Positions 3,160 through 54,341 of a stretch of DNA of 64,000 nt are shown here, one piece after another; the stretch's first letter is position 1; each line of letters starts with the position of its first letter. Both the position numbers and the translations under genes were made by a program. The stretch is taken from sequence record NC_014467.1. One strand, given 5' to 3'. This stretch comes from Escherichia phage RB16. Below the pieces are notes generated by a model. That model made no database searches. It was not told where the DNA came from and was given only the letters and a program-made list of their open reading frames with translations.

Positions 3160-3393
3160 TCACTTGTTGAAAATAATGTTTTCGCATGAATATTTTGTCG
3201 GTTTCTTGTCGATACCGTATTCAAGCGGTGTACACATACGATCCATATAATCGTAAATTTCTTGTTTGCGTTTTTCGTCCTTTTTCATTTCAAGGATACC
3301 AAAAACGATAGCAGTCACAAAACACATAGCGATAGTTGAAAGAATAACGATAGCTACGTATTTTGATGTGTTTGGTGCGCTGCATGGTCTCAT
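3160..3393 (-). CDS. small membrane protein (rIIA.1 position)
   Basis: 77 aa; hydrophobic segment YVAIVILSTIAMCFVTAIVFGIL; tightly packed upstream of rIIA. Confidence 0.45.
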   Translation of the reverse strand: MRPCSAPNTSKYVAIVILSTIAMCFVTAIVFGILEMKKDEKRKQEIYDYMDRMCTPLEYGIDKKPTKYSCENIIFNK

Positions 3394-3932
3394 TGTAACA
3401 CCTTCGCAAATTCCTGTGAAGTCAGTTTACGGGCAACTAAACGCCCTTTTGTTGATGCTTTATGGCCTACCATATACATCGTGGAAATGTTGCGTTTTCC
3501 TGATTGGATTTCATTATACATCTTTTCCGGCATGGTTGATTGATAAACTTCACCGTTTGATGTTTTCAGGAACATAGCATAAACATGGTCATCTTTCTTT
3601 TCGATGATTTCTTTTTCACGAACACGAACCTTAGACGATGTTGGTTTAGCACCCAATTCAATAGCCTTTCTTTGCCATACAGGTCCGTGTCCAGCACCAT
3701 AACCAACAAGGGCATGTGCGATTTCGTGCATAAGAGTATCCAAAATACAATCGTAGGTATCTTCTTCAACATGTTTCCGGCGTAACTGGATCTCTCTTTT
3801 GGAGTAACTGCAACAACCCAGAGTACGCTTGAAACGTCCGTTGATTTTGAAAGACCAATGAGATAAGCCATGCTTCGCCATGATGCTTTTGGCCCAAATG
3901 GTTATTTCCATATCGCTACGAGTTTTGAACAT
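3390..3932 (-). CDS. SprT-like zinc metalloprotease domain protein
   Basis: 180 aa; HEIAH (HExxH) motif with SprT-like N-terminal region; 4-nt overlap with downstream gene. Confidence 0.6.
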   Translation of the reverse strand: MFKTRSDMEITIWAKSIMAKHGLSHWSFKINGRFKRTLGCCSYSKREIQLRRKHVEEDTYDCILDTLMHEIAHALVGYGAGHGPVWQRKAIELGAKPTSSKVRVREKEIIEKKDDHVYAMFLKTSNGEVYQSTMPEKMYNEIQSGKRNISTMYMVGHKASTKGRLVARKLTSQEFAKVLQ

Positions 3933-4004: not shown

Positions 4005-5294
4005 TTATTTCAATTTCTTCGAAAGTTCTTTCAAATCATTGAGATATTCAGTTTTCGGGGTCGTTTCTTCCCAGTATTTCAGTTGCTTACGCAGTTCATT
4101 CGCTTCGTCTTCCAGCTTTTGACGTTCATCCGTGGTTAAATGGTAGATGTTCATCGCAACCAGGATTTCGGCGTGGTTCTCGCAACCCGCCCACGTAGAG
4201 ACAAGTTTAACCGCTTCGCTGCGACTAAGCCCCTTCAATGCGTCAGGCTGTGCGATCATCTGGTCGATGAAGTCAACCTTCGCCAGCGCTTTATCTAACG
4301 CTTCCTTAGTCTCCTGGATGCGTTTATCAATACGCTGTTGGTAAACACCAATACGGATATCAACGAAGTCTTTCAGCAACGTTTCAGGCCGCTCGTATGA
4401 ATGCAGTTTCCCGTTAAAGATAACGTTGATGTTCGGGTTTGAGTTCTCAATCAATCCGAAATCTTTCAGGATCTTCTCACGGGTAAGCCCGTTTGCGTAC
4501 TCACGTTTCAGGGTGATTTCGTAGCGGAAATCTTCTTTCGATAGATCCTTATAGCTTACGATATACCCTTTCTCTTCCAGCTTATCCAGAATAGAAATAT
4601 ATTTCACGCGATCATACTTGACCGGAATCTCTGTGATCACCAGTTTGGTTTTACCCTGGAGTTCGTACTTGCCGTACATCGTACCGTTTTCAATGTCACC
4701 TTTGAAATGCGGGTATTTCAGATCCAGCGTGAAATCTTTCCCGTTCAGGTAACTAACGCATCCATTCAGAACCGATACCGGATCATGTGGTGGAATGTTG
4801 GTAGCGTATGCTTTCGCGATCCCGCTGAACCCGTTAACCAATACCATCGGAATGATAGGCAGATAATAGGCAGGCGGTACGTGTTCAGGGTCTTCATGCG
4901 GAAGAGTTAAATCTTCGTCCATGTAGATAGCCTTGAACAGCGGAGACAGCTTACATTTGATGTAACGCGGTGCGCCTGGCTTCTTAACCAGACGGGAACC
5001 AAAGAACCCATCACGTTCGAAAAGCGGGATGTTGTTGCACCAGTGCGCCGCCATGAGAGACAACGCTTCTTCAACGGATGTTTCCCCGTGGTGATAACCA
5101 TACATAGCAACACCGCCAGCGATAGAGGCTACTTTCTGGAAGCCTGTACCGCCTTTTGCAGCGGAATGTATGAAGAAACGGTGAACGGGTTTGAACCCGT
5201 CTACCAGGTGCGGGATCGCACGAGAATAAATTGTGTAAAGGGCAAACGTAAGCCCTTCAACCTGCACAACGTCTTTAATACTTCGTTCCATCAA
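4005..5294 (-). CDS. 52: DNA topoisomerase II medium subunit (GyrA-like, gp52)
   Basis: 429 aa; GyrA N-terminal-like sequence; size matches T4 gp52 (442 aa); adjacent to gp39. Confidence 0.8.
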   Translation of the reverse strand: MMERSIKDVVQVEGLTFALYTIYSRAIPHLVDGFKPVHRFFIHSAAKGGTGFQKVASIAGGVAMYGYHHGETSVEEALSLMAAHWCNNIPLFERDGFFGSRLVKKPGAPRYIKCKLSPLFKAIYMDEDLTLPHEDPEHVPPAYYLPIIPMVLVNGFSGIAKAYATNIPPHDPVSVLNGCVSYLNGKDFTLDLKYPHFKGDIENGTMYGKYELQGKTKLVITEIPVKYDRVKYISILDKLEEKGYIVSYKDLSKEDFRYEITLKREYANGLTREKILKDFGLIENSNPNINVIFNGKLHSYERPETLLKDFVDIRIGVYQQRIDKRIQETKEALDKALAKVDFIDQMIAQPDALKGLSRSEAVKLVSTWAGCENHAEILVAMNIYHLTTDERQKLEDEANELRKQLKYWEETTPKTEYLNDLKELSKKLK

Positions 5295-7192
5295 TCAACC
5301 CTTGAAAATCTATGTTTTCCGTTTACCCAGTCTTTACGCGGATCGGAATCATCACCGAAACACAGTTCCAGAACGTCTTTGTATTCGTCGCCCAGTACGA
5401 TTGTATCGTATTTCAACTGGTCGCCCAACACCCGATCGTAATCTTCTTTACGCAAAGAACCCAGCCCTTTGATGTATCGTGCCTCTTTCGCTTTATCACG
5501 GAAAGGCGTGAAATCGTCCAGAGAGTAGAACCATTTTTCTTCACGTCCGACTTTCGCAATGATAATCGGTGTGCGAATATACCGGATCTTTTTCTTCGCG
5601 AACAACTCAGGCCAACGGCTAAAGAATGCAATTAACAGGGTGAGAATATCGCCCCCGTCAACGTCAGCATCCACCATGATCCCGATGTTGTCGTAAGTCA
5701 TTTCGGACGAGTCGCCTGGATGGAGATTCAGGATCGCCATTAACTCGAATAATTCTTTGTTTTTGAGAATGTCGGAATTGCTCATTCCCCAGGTGTTCAA
5801 CGGTTTGCCACGTAGCGGAAACGCGCCTTGTGTCTCTTCGTTTCTGCACTCGATAAACTGCCCCACAGCGGAATCACCTTCCGTCAGAAACAAAGTGGTT
5901 TCTACTCCATCGGTATCAATTCCTGATGCTGGAACATGTTTTGCAACCTTCGCCTTTTTCGCTTTCTTTTTCGCTTTCGTAATGGCTGCTGCTTCTGCTG
6001 CCTGTTTGCGAATCAAAGCGGACTCGATGATCGGAGTGATTATTTCAGAAGTATCCATAATCTGTTTCGCGATCTTCTTGTAGTTCAGTCCGGCGTGGTT
6101 GTTGAACTCCCCAGCAGTGTTTGTCAGTTTTTCTTTCGTCTGACTATCAAAAGCTGGTGCATTGAAGTTATGCAAAAACACGACCAAAGTCAAACATTCT
6201 TTTACACGGGCTTTCGGGATCTCGATAGCGTGTTTCTTCTTGATCATCGGTTCCAGTTCGGTATAGATACCATCGATCATGCAATCGACGTGTACACCAC
6301 CGTTTTTTGTGTCCAGACCGTTGACAAATGATTTCTGTTTGAACCCGTCTTCTGTGCTTGCCAGGATGAAACTGATTTTGTTGTTTGTCTGAACAATCGT
6401 TTTCTCTCCGTACATCGCACCATACATCGCGAATTTATTCGGGAGAACTTCATTGTTGTACGTAAATTTAACCGAAGGGAATGCCACTGCAAGCGCCATA
6501 AGGCGATCTTTGATGACTTCCTTTGTTTCTTCGTCGATACCATCCACACCGAAAATTGAGAAATCAGGGGTAAACTTAACAGTAGTTCCCTGTTCTTTCG
6601 TCGGGCTGGTTCGGTAATCCATATTCTGTGCGCCGTCAGTACAGTTGATCGTGACTTTGCGCTTACCGTTGGATGTCTCACCGATAAAGATTGAACTGTA
6701 ACAGTTAGTCAGGAAAGAACCTACACCGTTCATCCCCATTGTTACGCGGTTTTCATCATCGAAGTTTGAACCTGATTTTGCCATAGTCCAGGCTGCAACA
6801 GGTTTAGGGACAATTTTCCCTTCCGGCGTTCTCACGTCATCTTGTGGAATACCGCGCCCGTTATCTGAGATTGTCACCAAATTATGATCAATCTTCACTT
6901 CGATTTTGTTCGCGAATTTAAAATCTGTACGGATCGCTTCATCGATAGAGTTATCGAGGATTTCGTTGATGATTTTCACCAGACCTTCGACGTATTCCAC
7001 TTTGCGGAACTTACCCTGAATGAAGCGTTCGTGTGCTTCTCGGTTCACTGAACCCACATACATGTTAGGACGTTTGCGAATGTGATCGCGATCACTTAGG
7101 CAGAATGATTCATCGACTTCCACGCCTTTTGGCGTTTCCGGTACTTTCTGCGGTTCTTCTTCGTCCATTAAGAAATCTAAACTCATATTCAC
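5291..7192 (-). CDS. 39: DNA topoisomerase II large subunit (GyrB-like, gp39 with gp60 portion fused)
   Basis: 633 aa; GHKL ATPase motifs (ILDNSIDEA, DNGRGIP), TOPRIM region; length equals T4 gp39+gp60. Confidence 0.85.
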   Translation of the reverse strand: MNMSLDFLMDEEEPQKVPETPKGVEVDESFCLSDRDHIRKRPNMYVGSVNREAHERFIQGKFRKVEYVEGLVKIINEILDNSIDEAIRTDFKFANKIEVKIDHNLVTISDNGRGIPQDDVRTPEGKIVPKPVAAWTMAKSGSNFDDENRVTMGMNGVGSFLTNCYSSIFIGETSNGKRKVTINCTDGAQNMDYRTSPTKEQGTTVKFTPDFSIFGVDGIDEETKEVIKDRLMALAVAFPSVKFTYNNEVLPNKFAMYGAMYGEKTIVQTNNKISFILASTEDGFKQKSFVNGLDTKNGGVHVDCMIDGIYTELEPMIKKKHAIEIPKARVKECLTLVVFLHNFNAPAFDSQTKEKLTNTAGEFNNHAGLNYKKIAKQIMDTSEIITPIIESALIRKQAAEAAAITKAKKKAKKAKVAKHVPASGIDTDGVETTLFLTEGDSAVGQFIECRNEETQGAFPLRGKPLNTWGMSNSDILKNKELFELMAILNLHPGDSSEMTYDNIGIMVDADVDGGDILTLLIAFFSRWPELFAKKKIRYIRTPIIIAKVGREEKWFYSLDDFTPFRDKAKEARYIKGLGSLRKEDYDRVLGDQLKYDTIVLGDEYKDVLELCFGDDSDPRKDWVNGKHRFSRVD

Positions 7193-7251: not shown

Positions 7252-7461
7252 TTAAGCATCTTTGATTTTTTGAAGAATGGGTATCAGTTCTTCAACTTGC
7301 ATTCGCGTTAACGCGATCTCAAAACCGTATTGGTTAATTCGAGTGATTTGCGACACCGATTCTGAATCAAATTCAACAATCAGTTTGTCGCAATATTCTT
7401 GCGGTTGAAACCCATCAGCATACCCGTAATCGTCGGGTATGGTTTCGTTTATTTTAGACAT
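7252..7461 (-). CDS. hypothetical protein
   Basis: ORF with RBS AAGGTGG before the second Met of the track ORF; start overlaps the stop of the upstream zinc-ribbon ORF. Confidence 0.4.
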   Translation of the reverse strand: MSKINETIPDDYGYADGFQPQEYCDKLIVEFDSESVSQITRINQYGFEIALTRMQVEELIPILQKIKDA

Positions 7462-7615
7462 AGGGAAAGCCACCTTTTACCATTTGGGGCTTATCAACTG
7501 TTCGATGTGCTTCGCCCCCGCATTCACAGTCCTTTGGTGCATCGCGGGTCGCAATGCTGGACATTTTCGGGAACTCTTTTTCACACTTTTTGCATTTATA
7601 GGTATAAGTCGGCAT
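7454..7615 (-). CDS. small zinc-ribbon protein (CxxC-x18-CxC), 53 aa
   Basis: Not in ORF track (<60 aa); hand-translated MPTYTYKCKKCEKEFPKMSSIATRDAPKDCECGGEAHRTVDKPQMVKGGFPYV; TAATG overlap with upstream stop and 8-nt overlap with downstream start. Confidence 0.45.
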   Translation of the reverse strand: MPTYTYKCKKCEKEFPKMSSIATRDAPKDCECGGEAHRTVDKPQMVKGGFPYV

Positions 7616-8052
7616 TAATAGATCTCTTTTAAACTCAACATATCAATAAGATTAGCTCTACGCATATCAAACACACATTGTGATTTACCTGCATACAACC
7701 GATCAACTTCATATACCATACAAACGAAACCACAATTGTGTAAGCGTTCGCGTTCGTATTTGTTAAACCATTTTGACAGTTTAGGCAATGAAGCAAATCC
7801 GAAATGAAATCCGTCGAAACCGCCACCATTAAGACTACGAGAAAGTCGCAGATCTTCCCAAGGGGCCGGATGTCGGTCGTCGTCAATGGATACACAAGGA
7901 CGAGGATTAATATAAAATTGTTCTAACCATTTTAACGTTTTGTTGTTTATTACTTGCGTTACGTATGGCCCGATATTGCGAGTCCATTGCGTTTTTCCAC
8001 AATTCTGATCACGAATAACAGAAACGTTCAATTCAACACGGTAGACTAACAT
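7615..8052 (-). CDS. hypothetical protein
   Basis: 145 aa ORF in tightly packed minus-strand operon; no recognisable motif. Confidence 0.45.
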   Translation of the reverse strand: MLVYRVELNVSVIRDQNCGKTQWTRNIGPYVTQVINNKTLKWLEQFYINPRPCVSIDDDRHPAPWEDLRLSRSLNGGGFDGFHFGFASLPKLSKWFNKYERERLHNCGFVCMVYEVDRLYAGKSQCVFDMRRANLIDMLSLKEIY

Positions 8053-8982: not shown

Positions 8983-9569
8983 TTGTTTACAACCTCATTA
9001 TATGTTTTCAAATTCCATTCATGCACTTCCGGCACTTTGGAGTAATGATCCAGAAAGATTAACTGGACTTGCATAACGGTAGCACGATCCATATTGAAAA
9101 GGAAGCGCTGCGGGGAAGAAATGCAAAGATAATCATCTGTTGCTCCCCTGCTGGCGCTAAACTCTTTTGTTTCTCCACCGTCGAATTTAGCATAAACCTT
9201 TGTGTAAAAGTACGGGGCGAAAAGATTACGCTTTTCGTCGTCAGTAATCGCGCTAAAACAGGCGCTGGCGAGTTTTCCGCTACCTTCCCTTGTGATGGTG
9301 AAGGTTGTTCCCTTCGTGCGTCCCAAGACGTTCACAACGCGTTCTGTGACATCACCGAAAGCGTTCGTATAATTAACAGTTTCGACAAATCCGTGATCGC
9401 GCCTTTCCTGCAACATCTTTTCATGTTGGGCTATTGAATCTTGTTCAGCGGCGTGTTCAGCTGCTTGATAAACTGCTTTATTCGGATCTCTTGATTGCCA
9501 TGCGAAGAAAAACACTCCAGCGGCTATCAGTCCAAAAATTGCAAATCGTGCGGTTCCTGATAGTTTCAT
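8979..9569 (-). CDS. membrane-anchored hypothetical protein
   Basis: Start placed at MKLSGTARFAIFGLIAAGVFFFA (N-terminal TM/signal anchor); the longer 298-aa track ORF overlaps a separate upstream gene. Confidence 0.45.
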   Translation of the reverse strand: MKLSGTARFAIFGLIAAGVFFFAWQSRDPNKAVYQAAEHAAEQDSIAQHEKMLQERRDHGFVETVNYTNAFGDVTERVVNVLGRTKGTTFTITREGSGKLASACFSAITDDEKRNLFAPYFYTKVYAKFDGGETKEFSASRGATDDYLCISSPQRFLFNMDRATVMQVQLIFLDHYSKVPEVHEWNLKTYNEVVNK

Positions 9570-9603
9570 TTTCTTTTCCAGAAAGGGGCCGAAGCCCCTT
9601 AGT

Positions 9604-47191: not shown

Positions 47192-48075
47192 ACTTGTTTA
47201 TTACTGTAGGCGTACCAGGTAGCGGGAAAACTACATGGGCGAAAGAAAAAGCGCGTCAACTGGGGAACACTCTGACTGTTTCCCGTGACGATATCCGTCG
47301 AACCCTTTATTGTGCTGGCGGTGATCTAACTGGCTACCGCTTCACCGAAGAGAAAGAAAAACTGGTAACTCAGATGCAAACCAATATTGTTCTTAGTGCT
47401 CTGGGGCATGGAAAGAACGTTATTGTACACAATACGCATCTTAAACCAGGCGACCATATCTTCTGGAAAGAACTCGCGAAAGGAACAGGCGCGGAGTTGC
47501 ATTTCGAATACTTTGATGTTGATATCGTCGAACTGCTGAAGCGCAACCATAAACGCGGTGTAAATGCTTTGCCTGTCTCCCGTGTATGGGAAATGTTTAC
47601 ACAGTATCGTAAATTGCGTGGTTGGGTTCCGGCTATACAGTACGCAGATCCAAACAAACCAAAATGCGTTATCTTCGACGTTGACGGAACGTTAACCAAA
47701 GTTGGACAGCGTAGCCCGTATGACTTCACGAAGGTAATCGACGATCCTGCTAACCCTCCGGTTCAGGAACTGTTCAGGATGTATAAAGCCGCTGGTTATG
47801 CCTGTGTTGTTGTATCGGGGCGTGAGGGTACTGTACAGTGCGCACATGATACCGCTGCAAGCCTGATCGGGTATGATGTTGACCTGAGTGATGGTATTTT
47901 CATGCGTGAAGAAGGTGATCACCGTCACGATTTTCACGTAAAAGAGCAAATACTTGTTGAAAAGATTCTCGATAAGTATTATCCTGTTCTTGCAGTGGAC
48001 GACCGAGACACCCCTACCGGAATGTGGCGAATGAACGGTATCCCATGTTTCCAGGTTGATTACGGCGACTTCTAA
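47188..48075 (+). CDS. pseT: polynucleotide 5'-kinase/3'-phosphatase
   Basis: 295 aa; kinase P-loop GVPGSGKTT and HAD phosphatase motif VIFDVDGTL, with C-terminal DDR. Confidence 0.85.
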   Translation: MNLFITVGVPGSGKTTWAKEKARQLGNTLTVSRDDIRRTLYCAGGDLTGYRFTEEKEKLVTQMQTNIVLSALGHGKNVIVHNTHLKPGDHIFWKELAKGTGAELHFEYFDVDIVELLKRNHKRGVNALPVSRVWEMFTQYRKLRGWVPAIQYADPNKPKCVIFDVDGTLTKVGQRSPYDFTKVIDDPANPPVQELFRMYKAAGYACVVVSGREGTVQCAHDTAASLIGYDVDLSDGIFMREEGDHRHDFHVKEQILVEKILDKYYPVLAVDDRDTPTGMWRMNGIPCFQVDYGDF

Positions 48076-48081
48076 AAACAG

Positions 48082-48109
48082 TTGACAGTGATTGCTGGTA
48101 TGATAAGAT
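48082..48109 (+). promoter_or_regulatory. sigma70-like promoter: TTGACA, 16-bp spacer, TGaTAAGAT
   Basis: Consensus -35 and extended -10 upstream of 48135 ORF. Confidence 0.4.
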
Positions 48110-48134
48110 ACCCGCACACAAAAGGAGATATATT

Positions 48135-48401
48135 ATGATCGAACGTGAAAATGTAAATGTAATGGTTGAACTGGGTGATCGTGTTAATGTTGATAATCCG
48201 GTTGATTTACAACTGAAACTGAACCAGTTAGGCCAGCGTCTTGTTGATCGGCTTCCTGCTGGTTACAACGTGAAACTTGTCCGTGACGGTCAGTTCTCCT
48301 TCCTGCTGGGGATTATTAGTCAACGTGGTATCGTTGAACAACAGTTCGGAATCCAATGGAATCCGGTTTCTAAATTCGTAACGTGGGCTGGTGTATTATG
48401 A
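48135..48401 (+). CDS. hypothetical protein
   Basis: 88 aa; RBS AAGGAG. Confidence 0.45.
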   Translation: MIERENVNVMVELGDRVNVDNPVDLQLKLNQLGQRLVDRLPAGYNVKLVRDGQFSFLLGIISQRGIVEQQFGIQWNPVSKFVTWAGVL

Positions 48402-48649
48402 ACGAAGCTAAAAAGATCCATCAAGCATGGTTGTTGATGGATACCCGAATGGTTCGATATGGTTGTGTTTTTGGTTTGGTTGACAACGATCCGAAATTGG
48501 ATATTGTAACAAGTCCGGTTGTTGAATACGAAATTCCTAGTGATAATTCGTATGTGATCGTGAAAACTCGTTCTGGTAGTACATATCATATTGTCGAACC
48601 AGACAACAATTTTCTGAAAGACCTTCTGAAATACATGGGCGACCGATGA
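48398..48649 (+). CDS. hypothetical protein
   Basis: Start placed at MNEAKKIH (ATGA coupling). Confidence 0.4.
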   Translation: MNEAKKIHQAWLLMDTRMVRYGCVFGLVDNDPKLDIVTSPVVEYEIPSDNSYVIVKTRSGSTYHIVEPDNNFLKDLLKYMGDR

Positions 48650-49170
48650 AATTACTTCATATGATCCGCGCCATACAACACAGCCAGGGTTCTCGATGTA
48701 TATCGACCCGTGTTGGTGCGGTTATTGTAATGAATGGGCGCGTGGTGTCCCAGGGTTCGAATAATACGGTTGATTCTGATTGTCGTTGTGCTGATCATAA
48801 CGAGCACATGCTGAATGATGAAGGTAAGCTGAAAGCTGTTCACCGTCCAGAACATTCAGCATGGTCGAACGACAACGAGATCCACGCCGAAATGAAAGCG
48901 TTGCTAAGTGCTCATACTAATGGTATCATGCTTAACAACGCAGAGTTGTACACAACCGCTTCACCGTGTCCGAATTGTGCAAAACACATCGAATGGTATG
49001 TTGCGATTGGTGCAATAACTGCTGTATACTACCTCGATAAATACGATCGTGGTAATGACGAATGGATTTCACGTTTGCAAAAATATGGTTGCAGAGTGGA
49101 ACAAATTAAACGGGAAGAGTTGGAACCTCATATCAACTTTTCTAATTTAGTGTTTAACAACAATGAGTAA
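48646..49170 (+). CDS. cd: dCMP deaminase
   Basis: 174 aa; zinc-binding deaminase motifs HAEMKAL and PCPNCA. Confidence 0.8.
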   Translation: MKLLHMIRAIQHSQGSRCISTRVGAVIVMNGRVVSQGSNNTVDSDCRCADHNEHMLNDEGKLKAVHRPEHSAWSNDNEIHAEMKALLSAHTNGIMLNNAELYTTASPCPNCAKHIEWYVAIGAITAVYYLDKYDRGNDEWISRLQKYGCRVEQIKREELEPHINFSNLVFNNNE

Positions 49171-49174
49171 CAAA

Positions 49175-49519
49175 ATGTCTGAATTGAAAGTAAAAGCATC
49201 TTTTGAATACGTGATTATCGAAGCAACTGCTCGACCGCAGGGTTCCGAAATCGTATCATCAACTGGCATTGTAGTAGGTGTGCGTCAACACGGGGAACAA
49301 CCGTATTTTGGTAAAGTTGTTTCTGTAGGGCCGGAAGTACCGGAAGAAAACGCAAAAGCCCTGCTGGGTAAAATGGTTCCGCTTCCACATGCTCAAATGG
49401 CGAATGTTCCAGATCCAGACCTGGTTGCTGGCTACATTTCCGAAAAAGAAGCAAAAGAGAAAGAAACGAAATACGTTTCCGCACATTACAAAGCAATCCA
49501 GGCAATCTACGAGATCTAA
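49175..49519 (+). CDS. 31: co-chaperonin (gp31, GroES-like)
   Basis: Start placed at MSELKVKA; C-terminal VSAHYKAIQAIYEI resembles T4 gp31 C-terminus; follows cd as in T4. Confidence 0.65.
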   Translation: MSELKVKASFEYVIIEATARPQGSEIVSSTGIVVGVRQHGEQPYFGKVVSVGPEVPEENAKALLGKMVPLPHAQMANVPDPDLVAGYISEKEAKEKETKYVSAHYKAIQAIYEI

Positions 49520-49780: not shown

Positions 49781-49857
49781 GGCCCTTTAGCTTAATTGGT
49801 TAGAGCGGGTGACTCATAATCGCGCGGTTGCTGGTTCGAATCCAGCAGGGGCCACCA
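49781..49857 (+). tRNA. tRNA with anticodon CAU (Met, or Ile if lysidine-modified)
   Basis: Hand-folded cloverleaf: acceptor GGCCCTT/AGGGGCC, T-loop GGTTCGAATCC, anticodon loop CTCATAA, 3' CCA encoded. Confidence 0.75.
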
Positions 49858-49862
49858 AATAC

Positions 49863-49938
49863 GCAGGTGTAGTTCAATTGGTAGAATATCTGGTTTCCAT
49901 CCAGATTGTTGAGGGTTCGAGTCCCTTCACCTGCTCCA
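49863..49938 (+). tRNA. tRNA-Gly (anticodon UCC)
   Basis: Acceptor GCAGGTG/CACCTGC, T-loop GGTTCGAGTCC, anticodon loop TTTCCAT, 3' CCA encoded. Confidence 0.75.
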
Positions 49939-50087
49939 ATTCGGGTGCGTAGCGCAATGCCGTTAAATGGTTCGGAATATGCAACCTTATCGTATGCGAT
50001 AGGCTCTGTTGGTATCCGGTAATAGGTTCCCCGGAATGCGGGGTGAAGTAAAGAAACTTCCAGCCCACAAATTTAAAAGAGAAAAAT

Positions 50088-50510
50088 ATGAAAGGTCTTC
50101 AAAAGCTGTTTGATTTAACCCCACAAATTCGCGAAATCACTACCTCTGGTAAAAGCGACAATGAAATCAATAATGCATTGATGAAGTTTTTCACCGAAGA
50201 AATTGATGATTTCGAAACTCTGTTCCGTCACGCGTTAGAAGCGTATTCCGTGAACGGGTTCTTTGCATCACCACAGGTGAACAGCAAGAAACAATGCCAT
50301 CGTCGATTCTTCGACTGGTCGATCGTAAACGTGGTTCGCCGTACTGACATCGAACCAACAAATCACCAGTTGATGTCTGTTGATTCTGCTGTGTTTATCA
50401 TCCAGTATCTTATCAGCGGCGGTTTCAAATCGAACGATATTCCGTTCACAAATGAAGCTCTTATGGAAGAGTTTGCAGAAGCCCATAAGTACATCAAAGC
50501 AATTCGTTAA
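50088..50510 (+). CDS. hypothetical protein
   Basis: 140 aa; RBS GAGAAA; followed by terminator. Confidence 0.45.
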   Translation: MKGLQKLFDLTPQIREITTSGKSDNEINNALMKFFTEEIDDFETLFRHALEAYSVNGFFASPQVNSKKQCHRRFFDWSIVNVVRRTDIEPTNHQLMSVDSAVFIIQYLISGGFKSNDIPFTNEALMEEFAEAHKYIKAIR

Positions 50511-50515
50511 TCATC

Positions 50516-50541
50516 AGGCTATCTTCGGATAGCCTTTTTTC
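50516..50541 (+). terminator. rho-independent terminator (AGGCTATC-TTCG-GATAGCCT + TTTTTT)
   Basis: 8-bp stem, UUCG tetraloop, T-run. Confidence 0.6.
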
Positions 50542-50552
50542 TGGAGAAGCAC

Positions 50553-51122
50553 ATGCGCTTTTTAAAATACGCAAGCTGGCTTGTACTGGTTCCACTGGAT
50601 ATTCTTTCTGGTGTTCTGGCTATTCTGCTGGCTCCTTTCGTGGTTCCGTTCTATAGTGAAGAAACCGGACACTTACCTAAAGGGTTCCGTTGGATGGAAA
50701 CATTCGATAACCCGATCGATGGTGATGGTGGACATATCCGGCGTTGGGCTAACATCCGGTATCACTTAGGCGCTCTGGGTGTGTATACGCAACGTGTAGG
50801 CTGGTTGTGGCGTAACAAGGCGTACAACTTCGCTTATCACGTCTTAGGGCGTGAAGCACAATCAGACTTCGCCTGGAAGGGCAACCCGAAAACAGAAGGT
50901 GGTTCCGATCCATCACGTCACGGTTATCTGTTGATGTGGAATGATTCGGCATGGGGGCTTTATGTCTTCAAACCGTGGCTTAAAGTCGGAAAGGTTCAGT
51001 TCTGCTTACGCGTGTATTGCGGGTGGAAACTGAAACAGGAAGTAACTGACCCGAACGGGCTGGATCGTGCAATGCTGGCGTTCCATATCAACCCGTTGCG
51101 TTATTATGTCGTAGAAAGGTAA
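50553..51122 (+). CDS. membrane protein, unknown function
   Basis: 189 aa; N-terminal TM helices ([25 protein letters not shown]). Confidence 0.5.
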
Positions 51123-51126
51123 TACA

Positions 51127-51489
51127 ATGAAAGCATATCAGATTTTAGAAGGTTTACACACTGGCACAATCTACATGGAAGAAGGTAATGATGTTCGTGT
51201 GGTGGTATCCAAAACCCTCGAAATGGATTCAGTGATCGGTAAAGCTCGCGTTGCTCCATTCGCAAAACGTGAAGTCGATATTGAATTTCAACCCACTGTT
51301 AAAGTGGAAGGTGGACAACACTTAAACGTAAACGTGTTGCGCCGCGAAACTCTGGAAGATGCTGTGAAGCATCCAGAAAAATACCCACAGTTAACGATCC
51401 GTGTGTCCGGCTATGCAGTGCGTTTCAATTCACTGACTCCTGAACAACAGCGCGACGTTATCGCCCGAACCTTTACAGAGAGTCTATAA
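51127..51489 (+). CDS. autonomous glycyl-radical cofactor (GrcA/YfiD-like)
   Basis: 120 aa; C-terminal ~65 aa carry the glycyl-radical motif [25 protein letters not shown] and appear near-identical to enterobacterial GrcA/pyruvate formate-lyase C-terminus. Confidence 0.8.
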
Positions 51490-51770
51490 TGGCGATTGAA
51501 GACGTACAGGGCTATAAGCCCCATTCAAAAGAAAAGATCGACAAAGTAAACCGCATCAAGGCCGCTGAAATTGCCCTGGGCGAAATCTTCAAAGAACTGG
51601 ATGAAGAGTATTCAAGCGATTACGCGGTATCAGATACCGATTCATTCACCACAGAAGAACTCGATGCGATGCTTGAACGTGTCCATCAAATCCAACTGGC
51701 GAAAGACCGACTGAAAGAAGCCTCTATGTGGGCGTGTCGTGCGGTGTTCCAGCCAGAAGAAAAGTATTAA
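51489..51770 (+). CDS. hypothetical protein
   Basis: 93 aa; ATGG coupling with upstream gene; followed by terminator. Confidence 0.45.
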   Translation: MAIEDVQGYKPHSKEKIDKVNRIKAAEIALGEIFKELDEEYSSDYAVSDTDSFTTEELDAMLERVHQIQLAKDRLKEASMWACRAVFQPEEKY

Positions 51771-51774
51771 AATC

Positions 51775-51808
51775 CAGCCGTTGCCGAAAGGTAGCGGCTT
51801 TTTTCGTT
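51775..51808 (+). terminator. rho-independent terminator (10-bp stem with G-U wobbles, GAAA loop, U-run)
   Basis: AGCCGTTGCC-GAAA-GGTAGCGGCT followed by TTTTTTCGTTTTT. Confidence 0.55.
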
Positions 51809-51825
51809 TTTATGCAAAATAATGC

Positions 51826-51854
51826 TTGCACTGAATCAGGCTTTCTTGTATCTT
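51826..51854 (+). promoter_or_regulatory. sigma70-like promoter: -35 TTGCAC (within aATGCTTGCAc), 17-bp spacer, -10 TATCTT
   Basis: Shares the aATGCTTGCA -35 context with promoters at 9966-9994 and 56209-56238. Confidence 0.4.
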
Positions 51855-51895
51855 TAACCACGTAGGCAAGACAACTTAACTTTGAGGATGACATT

Positions 51896-52189
51896 ATGAA
51901 AACTTACAACATGAAAGACCTGGTTTGCTTCAAAACTCGCCGTGAAGCCCGTGCGTATGTTTTGGCGGCTGGTAAGAATACCTCTGCTGTAATCGACCTG
52001 GGTACTGATAAAGAGGTTGGTGCTCGTTGGGCTGCTGTTGTGGTTATCGCTGCTCCTGTGACTCCTGTTAAAACTCTGGTTCTGGGTGCGCGTAAAGCCG
52101 AAACTCTGAAAACCAGCACTTGCGGGGCGGGTGGTGTTCATAATGTTACGGTCATTCGAAAAAGATCTTTTAATCGAGTCGGTGTATGA
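51896..52189 (+). CDS. hypothetical protein
   Basis: 97 aa; RBS GAGGA; overlapping minus-strand ORFs judged spurious. Confidence 0.4.
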   Translation: MKTYNMKDLVCFKTRREARAYVLAAGKNTSAVIDLGTDKEVGARWAAVVVIAAPVTPVKTLVLGARKAETLKTSTCGAGGVHNVTVIRKRSFNRVGV

Positions 52190-52279
52190 AGGTATACGGG
52201 GAAAACAGAAAGAACAATCTCCGAAGAGATTGATGTAATCAATGAATTTCTATGTAGACCATACGTTAAGAGAGTTATT

Positions 52280-52720
52280 ATGAATATTGGTAGTGGTGAT
52301 TCATACCCATCATGCGCATTGAGCAACTTCGCCCCGCATCCGTTTACGTTTGACGGGGTAGAATGTGCATCAATGGAGGGCTTTTTACAAAGTCTGAAAT
52401 TCAGCAATCCAGATATGCAAGCGCATGTGTGTACGCTGGTTGGTAAAGCCGCCAAGTTCAAAGGCAAGAAAAAGAAATGGTATCGCGATCAGACCCTATA
52501 CTGGAAGGGTATGCCGATTCACCGTGAATCAGAAGCATATCAAATTCTGATTGAAAACGCATATAATGCGTTATTCCTTAATGAAGGGTTTCGCCGTGCG
52601 CTGGCAGCAACCGGAAAAAGTACCTTGACACATTCAATGGGAAAGAATAAGATGAATGAAACGGTACTCACTGAACGTGAGTTTGTCCGAAATTTAACCC
52701 GATTGAGAGATCTGTTATGA
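52280..52720 (+). CDS. NADAR (YbiA-like) domain protein
   Basis: 146 aa; motif LSNFAPHPFTFDGVECASMEGFLQSLKF fits the NADAR N-terminal signature; FRRALAATG...LTHS fits the C-terminal part. Confidence 0.55.
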   Translation: MNIGSGDSYPSCALSNFAPHPFTFDGVECASMEGFLQSLKFSNPDMQAHVCTLVGKAAKFKGKKKKWYRDQTLYWKGMPIHRESEAYQILIENAYNALFLNEGFRRALAATGKSTLTHSMGKNKMNETVLTEREFVRNLTRLRDLL

Positions 52721-52995
52721 TAGGTTATAAAGATTATGATGAAAGAGTAGAATGCGCGTTCCTGTTCAAAGGCGCGATTAACCCGTTGGCATTACTCCAC
52801 GCACAGGGCGCTTTGAGTTCTACCCTGATTATGGGTGTTATCTACAAAGCGGGTGTGTATTACGTCACCATCGGCGCGAACAACATTAACGTGATCAACA
52901 GCTACGTTGAAAAATGTAAGCTGAAAGATATCGTGTTCGATAAAGTCGAAATGGATGTTCCTGGCTTCGACGCTGTTTATATGTACAAGGGTTGA
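52717..52995 (+). CDS. hypothetical protein
   Basis: 92 aa; 4-nt coupling. Confidence 0.4.
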   Translation: MIGYKDYDERVECAFLFKGAINPLALLHAQGALSSTLIMGVIYKAGVYYVTIGANNINVINSYVEKCKLKDIVFDKVEMDVPGFDAVYMYKG

Positions 52996-53219
52996 TGATG
53001 GGTTACGTGGTTTATTTCGATTGTTCGGATCTTGATCCGTTCGTTCTGCAACAGGCAAAGAAATATCATCAAGATATCACTGGTATCAGTGTCACGAACG
53101 ATGATATGCTGTGTATCGAATTTGATTATTATCGTACATTTGAGCGTGACAAATTCCTTGCGGATATTGAAGCGTTTAAGAGTACCCTTTTCTTTGATCG
53201 TTATGAGGTTAAATCTTGA
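52992..53219 (+). CDS. hypothetical protein
   Basis: 75 aa; 4-nt coupling. Confidence 0.4.
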   Translation: MMMGYVVYFDCSDLDPFVLQQAKKYHQDITGISVTNDDMLCIEFDYYRTFERDKFLADIEAFKSTLFFDRYEVKS

Positions 53220-53821
53220 AACCAGTTATTCTTACCGACATTGACGGGATCGCCGTAAAATGGCAGTCGGGGTTGCCGTTCTTTTTGTCTAAACACAACA
53301 TGCCGACCGATATCGCGCTGGATATGGTTACGGATGAAAAGTTCCGCGATATGACCGAAATCTTCGGGTGTGATCACCAACTGGCGAAAATTCTCATGGA
53401 AGAATACAACAACAGTTCGTTTATTCGCTATCTAAGCGCGTATGACGATGCGTTGATTGTGATCAACCGTCTGAAAGCAAAGTATGATTTCGTGGCTGTC
53501 ACGGCGCTGGGAACTACTCCTACGGCAAGCCTGAACCGTATTGCGAACCTGAACACGCTGTTCCCTTCTGCATTCAAAGAGGTTTGTGTTGTCGGTCACG
53601 GCGAAACGAAAGTACATCGTTACCTGGAAGCCAAAGCAAAATATGGCGATCGTTTAGTATGTTTCATTGATGACCTTGCAGTAAACTTGAATGAGTGTCA
53701 TAACGTCATCAGTCAGTTGCCGTTATTCCATATGTTGCGTGGCGAACGTAGTGAACCGAGTGTACCTCATACTAAAGTGAATAACTGGCATGAAATTGAA
53801 AAAGCAATTGAGAACTCTTGA
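53216..53821 (+). CDS. HAD-superfamily hydrolase, putative 5'(3')-deoxyribonucleotidase
   Basis: 201 aa; N-terminal DxDG motif (ILTDIDGI) and late DD motif (VCFIDDLAVN). Confidence 0.5.
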   Translation: MKPVILTDIDGIAVKWQSGLPFFLSKHNMPTDIALDMVTDEKFRDMTEIFGCDHQLAKILMEEYNNSSFIRYLSAYDDALIVINRLKAKYDFVAVTALGTTPTASLNRIANLNTLFPSAFKEVCVVGHGETKVHRYLEAKAKYGDRLVCFIDDLAVNLNECHNVISQLPLFHMLRGERSEPSVPHTKVNNWHEIEKAIENS

Positions 53822-54341
53822 TGAAGAAACGCAAGGTATAGAAAACCTACTACAATGTATTCGAGTAGAACCAGAAACCGGAAAATGTTTCTGGTTGGAA
53901 AAGAGAAGTAATAAAATTCCTGCTGGAAGTGAAGCAGGTTCTTTTCATAAATCAAGTGGATATACGCGAATAAAATTCGAAAATGCGATGTACATCCGGT
54001 CAAGGGTGATATTTTATTACGTTAATGGTTATCTTCCAGTGATGGTTGACCATGTTCACGGTGTTGAATGCGGTGATATGATTTCTAATCTAAGGGAGTC
54101 CAATCAGGTAACAAATCAACAAAACCGCACACGGAATAAAAATAATACCGTTGGGTTTAAGGGCGTGTCATTCAACAAGAAATCGCAAAAATATAGCGCC
54201 AAAATCACTTTACATGGAGTGACTAAGTGGTTAGGATTTTATGATTCTGCCGAGGAAGCAAGTGAAGCATATAAGGCCAAAGCACTCGTTTCCTTTACAC
54301 ATAATGAAAGGTACTTAAATGATCTTACAGATTCTGAATGA
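53790..54341 (+). CDS. HNH-AP2 homing endonuclease (Mob-like)
   Basis: 183 aa; YLPVMVDHVHGVECGDMISNL and GVSFNKKSQKYSAKI...WLGFYDSAEEASEAY; paralog of 33781..34311; inserted upstream of DNA ligase. Confidence 0.7.
   Translation: MKLKKQLRTLDEETQGIENLLQCIRVEPETGKCFWLEKRSNKIPAGSEAGSFHKSSGYTRIKFENAMYIRSRVIFYYVNGYLPVMVDHVHGVECGDMISNLRESNQVTNQQNRTRNKNNTVGFKGVSFNKKSQKYSAKITLHGVTKWLGFYDSAEEASEAYKAKALVSFTHNERYLNDLTDSE

Follow-up and report, generated by a model that had tools for sequence, protein, structure and literature searches.

Positions 50,088 to 53,821 of a 64,000-nt stretch of the Escherichia phage RB16 genome (NC_014467.1; hereafter, the window) hold a block of nine open reading frames (ORFs), here designated o1 to o9, between two tRNA genes and the gene for DNA ligase. 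Our analyses indicate that this block is probably the form taken in Pseudotevenvirus and Slopekvirus by the non-essential region of small genes upstream of DNA ligase in T4-like phages. It joins a pair of genes kept at their T4 position, 30.3 and 30.2 (o6 and o9), with the vs.6-vs.4 pair, coding for GrcA and Acb2 (o3 and o4), which is located elsewhere in T4. The block further holds a DUF7338 membrane protein (o2) and four clade-specific orphans (o1, o5, o7 and o8), and the region appears to evolve by replacement of o1 as a cassette, by gain and loss of small ORFs at fixed junctions and by endonuclease homing. A previous sequence-only reading of the window had described the block as an accessory region with anti-defence cargo, which our results support in part.

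Location of the block and comparison with T4

The nine ORFs proposed for 50088-53821 are all present, on a single strand, and their placement between the tRNAs and the ligase was also confirmed: tRNA-Met and tRNA-Gly (49781-49938) lie upstream, and an HNH endonuclease and DNA ligase downstream. The complete order on the plus strand is polynucleotide kinase, dCMP deaminase, gp31 co-chaperonin, an ORF of 83 aa, tRNA-Met(CAU), tRNA-Gly(UCC), o1 to o9, HNH-AP2 endonuclease and DNA ligase. A 4.7-kb stretch around the block is 96.4% identical over its whole length to Escherichia phage UPEC03, and shows 93–97% identity to many T4-like phages of Cronobacter, Enterobacter, Klebsiella and Citrobacter; in all, 176 records match the block DNA. 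The matching phages are classed as Pseudotevenvirus (GAP161, leB, RB43, Lw1), and the region is recognisable in Slopekvirus too. By these sequence matches, RB16 is a T4-like phage of the Pseudotevenvirus type.

The block is syntenic with the interval between genes 31 and 30 of T4, which holds rIII and genes 30.9 to 30.1. In both phages it lies between gp31 and DNA ligase, and the orthologues of 30.3 and 30.2 agree in order and strand; the claim that T4 has different small genes here is therefore incorrect or overstated, because 30.3 and 30.2 occupy the same place in T4. There are, however, clear differences. Instead of rIII and 30.9 to 30.4, RB16 contains the two tRNAs, o1, DUF7338, GrcA, Acb2 and o5; the position of 30.1 is taken by the HNH endonuclease; and, unlike in T4, two orphans (o7 and o8) separate the orthologues of 30.3 and 30.2. 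Likewise, vs.6-vs.5-vs.4 lie about 65 kb from 30.3-30.2 in T4, whereas the Acb2 and AdfN (30.3) genes of RB16 are within about 0.5 kb. Outside the clade, T4 shares only 30.3-30.2 at this position, and the grcA-acb2 pair of a Jiaodavirus is found in yet another context. Homologues of Vs.6, Vs.4, gp30.3 and gp30.2 were already named in the 2012 record of Cronobacter phage GAP161.

All nine ORFs are real genes under purifying selection. Their ratios of nonsynonymous to synonymous substitution rates (dN/dS), determined pairwise against Slopekvirus Roth88, RB43 and Lw1, ranged from 0.04 to 0.48, with dS values of up to 2.6; the adjacent DNA ligase gene, with a dN/dS of 0.10, is similar. Additionally, each of the nine has its own PHROG family, with E-values from 1e-27 to 1e-82.

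Block genes with orthologues in T4

For o3, o4 and o6, we infer the mode of action from their characterised orthologues. Gene o6 (52280-52720, plus strand; 146 aa) is predicted from orthology to encode gp30.3/AdfN, a NADAR-type DNA ADP-ribosylglycohydrolase acting against DarTG1. Its product matches the Pfam family Phage_30_3 (PF08010) over residues 9-144 with an E-value of 4e-56 (score 189 bits, cut-off 36), and its identity to T4 gp30.3 is 42%, bearing out the NADAR ORF of the sequence-only reading. T4 gp30.3 is AdfN, a NADAR-type enzyme that reverses the ADP-ribosylation of phage DNA by DarT1; its catalytic residues are E36 and K43, and RB69 has a truncated, inactive allele (PMC11825919). 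In a transposon study (HIDEN-SEQ preprint), T4 30.3 was non-essential on K-12 and required with DarTG1 present. Residues E33 and K40 of o6, invariant in our alignment, align with E36 and K43 of T4, and the C-terminus is full length, aligning to the end of the T4 protein; in contrast to the truncated RB69 allele, o6 thus keeps the C-terminal helix needed for full activity. Sequence comparison thereby identifies o6 as an AdfN orthologue with the predicted catalytic Glu and Lys kept. By analogy with T4, o6 would strip the ADP-ribose put by host DarT1 on guanines of phage DNA, which would restore replication. The Aravind survey of NAD/ADP-ribose systems contains no statement on gp30.3 or gp30.2. 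In the UPEC03 record, the gp30.3/AdfN gene (5078-5518) is labelled as a putative homing endonuclease.

Gene o4 (51489-51770, plus strand; 93 aa), whose start overlaps the stop codon of o3 by 1 nt, is one of five ORFs that had been left as unknown, which did not hold for this gene: its product is a predicted Acb2/Vs.4 sponge for cyclic oligonucleotides, acting against the cyclic oligonucleotide-based antiphage signalling system (CBASS). It matches Acb2_Tad1_hairpin (PF24729; E-value 2e-17; score 63.6 bits, cut-off 27) and, across residues 3-93, the structure of T4 Vs.4 (PDB 7UQ2; E-value 2.3e-23), with an E-value of 0.04 for the Acb2 of phage PaMx33. The T4 protein is 53% identical to o4, of similar length and with the hairpin domain in common; its gene lies in the regB-vs region, whereas o4 follows directly after GrcA and is near AdfN. 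Residues Y9 and K24 of o4 align with Y11 and K26 of Acb2, which stack on, and form a salt bridge with, the cyclic dinucleotide and whose mutation abolishes binding (PMC10312549). The Tyr and Lys of the dinucleotide pocket are thus common to o4 and PaMx33 Acb2 (PDB 8H2J, 8IXZ), but the trinucleotide pocket is not. We consequently regard o4 as an Acb2 orthologue and a predicted cyclic-dinucleotide sponge. As in its characterised relatives, o4 would form a hexamer sequestering the cyclic dinucleotide signals from the CBASS of the host, and the CBASS effector would then stay unactivated.

The product of o3 (51127-51489, plus strand; 120 aa) is a GrcA-type autonomous glycyl radical cofactor, orthologous to T4 Vs.6, in agreement with the GrcA-like ORF noticed previously. 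It contains a Gly_radical domain (PF01228; 2.5e-18, 67 bits against a cut-off of 22.2), with the RVSGY motif at residues 92-96 and the radical site at G95, and is 76% identical to Vs.6 across all 120 residues, both proteins being of equal length. Residues 61-120 are 100% identical to residues 68-127 of E. coli GrcA, and the 59 N-terminal residues are phage-specific; o3 therefore looks chimeric, with a host-identical C-terminal portion of 60 aa and an N-terminus of its own. At the DNA level, the 3' half of o3 shows 83.9% identity to grcA in 5426 of 5426 complete E. coli genomes. The T4 record names Vs.6 GrcA, and we take Vs.6 to be the protein also called Y06I. Repair of oxygen-cleaved pyruvate formate-lyase by a 'spare part' protein has been validated for two such proteins, T4 Y06I and E. 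coli YfiD (PMC8683613). By analogy, o3 would be activated by the pyruvate formate-lyase activating enzyme of the host and would then substitute for the oxygen-cleaved glycyl-radical domain of the host pyruvate formate-lyase, which could keep fermentative energy metabolism going in microaerobic hosts.

Gene o9 (53216-53821, plus strand; 201 aa) starts with a TTG that overlaps the stop codon of o8, and codes for the orthologue of gp30.2, a predicted hydrolase of the HAD superfamily. It is 47% identical to the first 198 residues of T4 gp30.2, which has a C-terminal extension of about 80 aa that is not in o9. Among 37 diverse homologues, the residues D8, D10, G11, D152 and D153 of HAD motifs I-IV are invariant, with T96 and K132 almost invariant. 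The AlphaFold2 model is confident (pLDDT 95.4) and Foldseek retrieved 128 PDB matches with E-values of 0.001 or lower, of which the top 50 all have the HAD fold and are nearly all annotated as HAD-family hydrolases. The TTG start is required, because a downstream start loses the catalytic DxD motif; the coding sequence for gp30.2 in UPEC03 (6097-6618) starts downstream of this motif and is thus a call without the catalytic aspartates.

The conserved motifs I-IV, the confident model and the HAD matches make o9 a solid prediction of a HAD-superfamily phosphohydrolase, and no HAD model of Pfam or NCBIfam matched. Of the HAD nucleotidase initially proposed, it is then the HAD part that stands. The nucleotidase part leans on the best Foldseek match, the deoxyribonucleotidase-like 3BWV (E-value 9e-8, with many HAD hydrolases at about 1e-7), and on a weak profile match to the mouse 5'(3')-deoxyribonucleotidase 2JAO (E-value 0.033). 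These two proteins have in common with o9 the DxDG nucleophile, the Thr, Lys and DD motifs, a Rossmann-like core and a helical cap; however, the TM-scores are only 0.57–0.66, with about 16% identity, and dehalogenases and other phosphatases give equally good structural matches. The assignment of o9 as a 5'(3')-deoxyribonucleotidase is thus suggestive, and we picture it as an HAD phosphohydrolase with an intact predicted active site, probably acting on a nucleotide.

Conservation, plasticity and mosaicism of the region

We scored the block ORF by ORF, using tblastn, in eight loci: those from UPEC03, GAP161, leB, SemperBestia, RB43, Lw1 and the Slopekviruses Roth88 and R2_1. The nine-gene order is common to all eight, single natural losses aside: Lw1 lacks GrcA, RB43 has a shortened Acb2 homologue and R2_1 a truncated o1. 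Furthermore, individual genes or the block DNA match 173 to 176 phage records. ORFs are gained or lost at five junctions, tRNA|o1, o1|o2, o5|o6, o6|o7 and o9|ligase. The junction o5|o6 is 90 nt long and has no extra ORF in RB16 (52190-52279), GAP161 and UPEC03, but contains three to eight extra ORFs of around 35–97 aa in leB (4468-5797 of the retrieved locus), SemperBestia, RB43 (9411-10740 of the retrieved locus), Lw1 and the Slopekviruses. The short form is probably a deletion, because the long form occurs in the more distant relatives. The sequence-only reading implied that order and content would vary across related phages; the order shared by the eight loci runs counter to this, and the natural losses and the insertions and deletions at junctions agree with it.

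An identity profile in sliding windows of 200 nt showed that RB16 is a recombinant in this region, with breakpoints near 49400, 50000 and 50550. Positions 48001-49400, containing the dCMP deaminase and gp31 genes, are 98–100% identical to Lw1 and only 70–91% to GAP161 and UPEC03. From about 49400, in the tRNA segment, the sequence turns to the GAP161 type. Within the o1 stretch (50001-50550), identity is then 98–100% to leB and SemperBestia, against 76–88% to GAP161 and UPEC03, and the remaining block is 96–100% identical to all phages of the GAP161 and leB types.

Adjoining the block, an HNH-AP2 homing endonuclease of the RB16 4 type (53790-54341, plus strand; phrog_99, 1e-51) overlaps the 3' end of o9 as well as the beginning of the ligase gene; its matches to the Pfam domains HNH_3 and AP2 are below threshold. 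UPEC03, SemperBestia and R2_1 have this gene, GAP161, leB, Lw1 and Roth88 lack it at this site, and RB43 contains a different HNH gene (35% identity) upstream of o9. Positions 53601-54300, which comprise the last 200 nt or so of o9 and the HNH gene, are 96–100% identical in R2_1, whose flanking o9 and ligase sequences show only about 80–87% identity, the ligase itself about 80%. This near identity between divergent flanks indicates that the endonuclease homed recently across genera, with apparent co-conversion of its flank.

Orphan genes of the block

The most divergent gene of the block is o1 (50088-50510, plus strand; 140 aa), an orphan that is exchanged as an allelic cassette. Its dN values, 0.34–0.53, are by far the highest of the block, and it matches 173 phage records from the same clade as those matching the block DNA. 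Its family has 11 representatives only among 1.84 billion proteins. The fold is predicted with confidence and has no solved structural neighbour, and searches in Pfam, NCBIfam, PADLOC and the PDB sequences returned nothing informative. Distant homologues of o1 are surrounded by small unknown ORFs only. Single-linkage clustering grouped o1 with ORFs of 93 aa that lie beside it in relatives, but direct BLASTP comparison showed no similarity, so they are not o1 paralogues and the cluster is probably an artefact of extended ORF calls. Similarly, T4 vs.7 and vs.8 were considered as counterparts of o1 and o2, respectively, and rejected for lack of similarity. In Roth88, the label 'anti-CBASS protein acb2' was assigned to the o1 homologue (6001-6423), with the real Acb2 homologue (7404-7673) called hypothetical; neither sequence nor fold backs this label on o1.

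Gene o2 (50553-51122, plus strand; 189 aa) encodes a DUF7338 protein (PF24027, 5e-65) with a predicted N-terminal hydrophobic anchor: residues 6-36 are strongly hydrophobic, with a Kyte-Doolittle maximum of 2.35 over 19 residues. This agrees with the membrane protein that had been noticed among the ORFs. Its matches comprise 605 phage records, among them those of FelixO1-like, other T4-like and Aeromonas phages, with no match in the two T4 regions compared, and searches in PADLOC, NCBIfam and the PDB sequences yielded nothing usable. The UPEC03 record labels the corresponding gene (3351-3920) as a holin.

The three small orphans gave nothing informative in Pfam, NCBIfam, PADLOC or the PDB sequences. 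Gene o5 (51896-52189, plus strand; 97 aa; phrog_7596) stands alone between the second terminator of the block (see below) and o6. It is restricted to the clade, since all of the 176 phage records that it matches belong there, and the 30 protein clusters that it matches are devoid of Pfam domains. Its residues 45-65 are hydrophobic (Kyte-Doolittle 1.87) and followed by a basic tail, for which reason o5 may be a small single-pass membrane protein; with a dN/dS of 0.25–0.48, it is under the weakest constraint of the nine genes. Both o7 (52717-52995, plus strand; 92 aa) and o8 (52992-53219, plus strand; 74–75 aa) are translationally coupled, the former to o6, and match a single PHROG family each (phrog_7604 and phrog_6222, respectively). 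In the compared loci, o7 shows 75–100% identity, with a dN/dS of about 0.10, and o8 shows 84–99% identity, with a dN/dS of 0.07–0.16. Translation of o8 likely begins with the ATG at 52995, overlapping the stop codon of o7.

Significance of the block and alternative readings

What had been described as a hyperplastic region with anti-defence cargo stands in part. The orthologues of Acb2 and AdfN, the five sites of insertion and deletion, the swap of o1, the variable HNH gene and the gene losses agree with it, and the conserved backbone and the T4 orthologues do not. Orthologues in T4 were found for four of the nine genes (o3, o4, o6 and o9), and the nine-gene order in all eight loci, together with the 173 to 176 matching records, speaks against a region devoid of a conserved backbone. 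That the block would be dispensable on a permissive host is suggested indirectly, by the non-essential 30.3 of T4 on K-12 and by the natural losses of single genes in relatives. An anti-defence block would fit, at most, part of the content, because o1, o2, o5, o7 and o8 are without assignable function.

Some individual assignments are also affected. Against the general NADAR model (PF08719), o6 scores 15.3 bits, below the cut-off of 35.1 (E-value 0.025), and it belongs to a divergent NADAR branch that is recognised solely through the phage-specific gp30.3 model. The score of o3 against the NCBIfam GrcA equivalog TIGR04365 (155.6 bits) is below the cut-off of 170, because its N-terminal half diverges. 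In o4, the positions of R67 and T74, from the cyclic-trinucleotide pocket of PaMx33 Acb2, are not conserved and have, according to the alignment chosen, His/Gln and Asp/Arg; these positions vary among Acb2 homologues, and T4 keeps T74 only (PMC10312549). Membership in the Acb2 family does not depend on these residues. The ligand range of o4 may therefore be centred on dinucleotides, as reported for T4, and is possibly narrower than that of PaMx33 Acb2. Finally, the transcription units described below are deduced from terminators and gene spacing.

An alternative that we find rather doubtful is that the whole block is a dedicated anti-defence island, in which the orphans, DUF7338 and the gp30.2 HAD protein are further counter-defence factors; the role of gp30.2, for instance, might be to hydrolyse an immune signal derived from a nucleotide, or else a de-ADP-ribosylation product. 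The proximity of Acb2 and AdfN, about 0.5 kb apart here versus about 65 kb in T4, is what such an island would show, and gp30.2 is found beside or near AdfN from T4 to this clade. The orphans are very narrowly distributed, and o1 combines the top dN of the block with allele exchange and a confident fold lacking a solved relative. Nevertheless, no homology, motif or structural link connects any orphan to a known anti-defence protein, and the sole anti-defence label in databases, that on the o1 homologue of Roth88, is unsupported. In addition, DUF7338 is widespread in unrelated phage groups without a known role, and the function of GrcA is metabolic.

It is also unlikely that the block is a lineage-conserved region of early genes for host takeover and metabolic support, with GrcA contributing to energy and the HAD protein to nucleotide pools, and with Acb2 and AdfN as mere conserved residents, rather than a hyperplastic store of cargo. 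This would agree with the nine-gene order in eight loci of two genera, with around 175 matching records, with a purifying selection on all genes similar to that on the ligase gene, with the neighbouring genes for nucleotide metabolism (dCMP deaminase and polynucleotide kinase) and with the identity of the functional half of GrcA to the host protein. However, counter-defence functions are documented in T4 for two of the residents, which the phage can do without on defence-free hosts; moreover, natural isolates have lost single genes, ORFs come and go at five junctions among near-identical phages, o1 is exchanged as a cassette, and the backbone is not kept outside the clade, T4 sharing only 30.3 and 30.2 here.

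Lastly, it is very improbable that o5, o7 and o8 are chance ORFs: they are short (75–97 aa), have no Pfam, NCBIfam or PDB match and, in the mechanical ORF list, o8 begins with TTG, as does o9, but their dN/dS values are 0.07–0.48 with dS of up to 1.4, their amino acid identity across two genera is 75–100%, each has one dedicated PHROG family (1e-40 to 1e-58) and their start and stop codons overlap codons of their neighbours.

Returning to the block as the clade's version of the small-gene region upstream of the ligase, little in it is new, and we regard it as largely ordinary. The characterised genes have orthologues in T4 whose functions are already published, and the block is present in about 175 relatives; moreover, the plasticity of such regions is well known from comparisons of T4-like genomes. 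What remains of interest is the juxtaposition of Acb2 and AdfN, unlike in T4, the adjoining orphans, above all o1, and a conserved RNA element linked to the tRNAs. We put forward only as a tentative idea, and one that we would not favour, that Acb2 and AdfN were joined into one island in Pseudotevenvirus and Slopekvirus and that at least one uncharacterised resident is an anti-defence factor of a new kind; o1, the gp30.2 HAD hydrolase and the small hydrophobic o5 would be the best candidates.

By analogy with T4, RB16 and about 175 relatives infecting Klebsiella, Enterobacter, Cronobacter and Citrobacter are predicted to resist DarTG1 and the CBASS types that use cyclic dinucleotides, and such a resistance would bear on host range when selecting therapeutic phages. 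Several of the labels in the Roth88 and UPEC03 records look wrong in view of our comparisons, and database corrections would concern the 'holin' on DUF7338, the 'homing endonuclease' on AdfN, the misplaced 'acb2' and the truncated gp30.2 call.

Transcription signals, tRNA genes and a candidate small RNA

The nine ORFs had been described as separated by their own terminators and promoters, which was not the case. There are only two strong intrinsic terminators in the block, both on the plus strand. The first, after o1 (50516-50545, or 50516-50535 if delimited more narrowly), has a stem of 8 bp (AGGCTATC/GATAGCCT), a TTCG loop and a T-run; the second, after o4 (51776-51808, or 51776-51799 if delimited more narrowly), has a stem of 10 bp with six GC pairs, a GAAA loop and a T-run. 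Sites resembling sigma-70 promoters showed no enrichment (8 found versus 9.2 expected in shuffled sequence), with none in the intergenic gaps of the block, and no T4-type late promoter (TATAAATA) was found in the block. A MotA-box-like sequence upstream of o5 (AATGCTTGCA) was rejected as part of a promoter, because the only TAnnnT lies about 5 nt too far with respect to the usual consensus and spacing of MotA boxes. Most junctions are translationally coupled, and six of the eight within the block either overlap or span no more than 4 nt. Genes o2 and o3 are separated by a gap of 4 nt, and o3/o4, o6/o7, o7/o8, o8/o9, o9/HNH and HNH/ligase overlap. With no promoter located, we infer around four putative units from terminators and gene spacing alone: the tRNAs with the candidate small RNA and o1; o2-o3-o4; o5; and o6 to the ligase gene, this last translationally coupled.

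Outside the block, directly 3' of tRNA-Gly and upstream of o1, there is a conserved non-coding element of about 130 nt (49939-50068, plus strand). Its identity across eight related loci is 91–100%, including loci with other flanking tRNAs and another o1 allele. A consensus fold by RNAalifold has 38 pairs, five of them with compensatory double changes; the z-score of the single sequence is only −0.87, and there was no match in Rfam. The element is thus a candidate structured small RNA. Its position is like that of rnaC and rnaD, the stable RNAs that follow the tRNA cluster of T4; as a homologue of these it was set aside, because the resemblance is short and patchy, and to rnaD only, and homology is not established.

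The first of the two tRNA genes (49781-49857) was identified by ARAGORN as tRNA-Met(CAU), and some relatives annotate it as tRNA-Ile or tRNA-Ile2(CAT). It shows about 85% identity to the tRNA-Ile genes of Stx2-converting phages. Because of this similarity and of the annotation in the relatives, the gene may specify a lysidine-modified tRNA-Ile2 instead of an elongator tRNA-Met.

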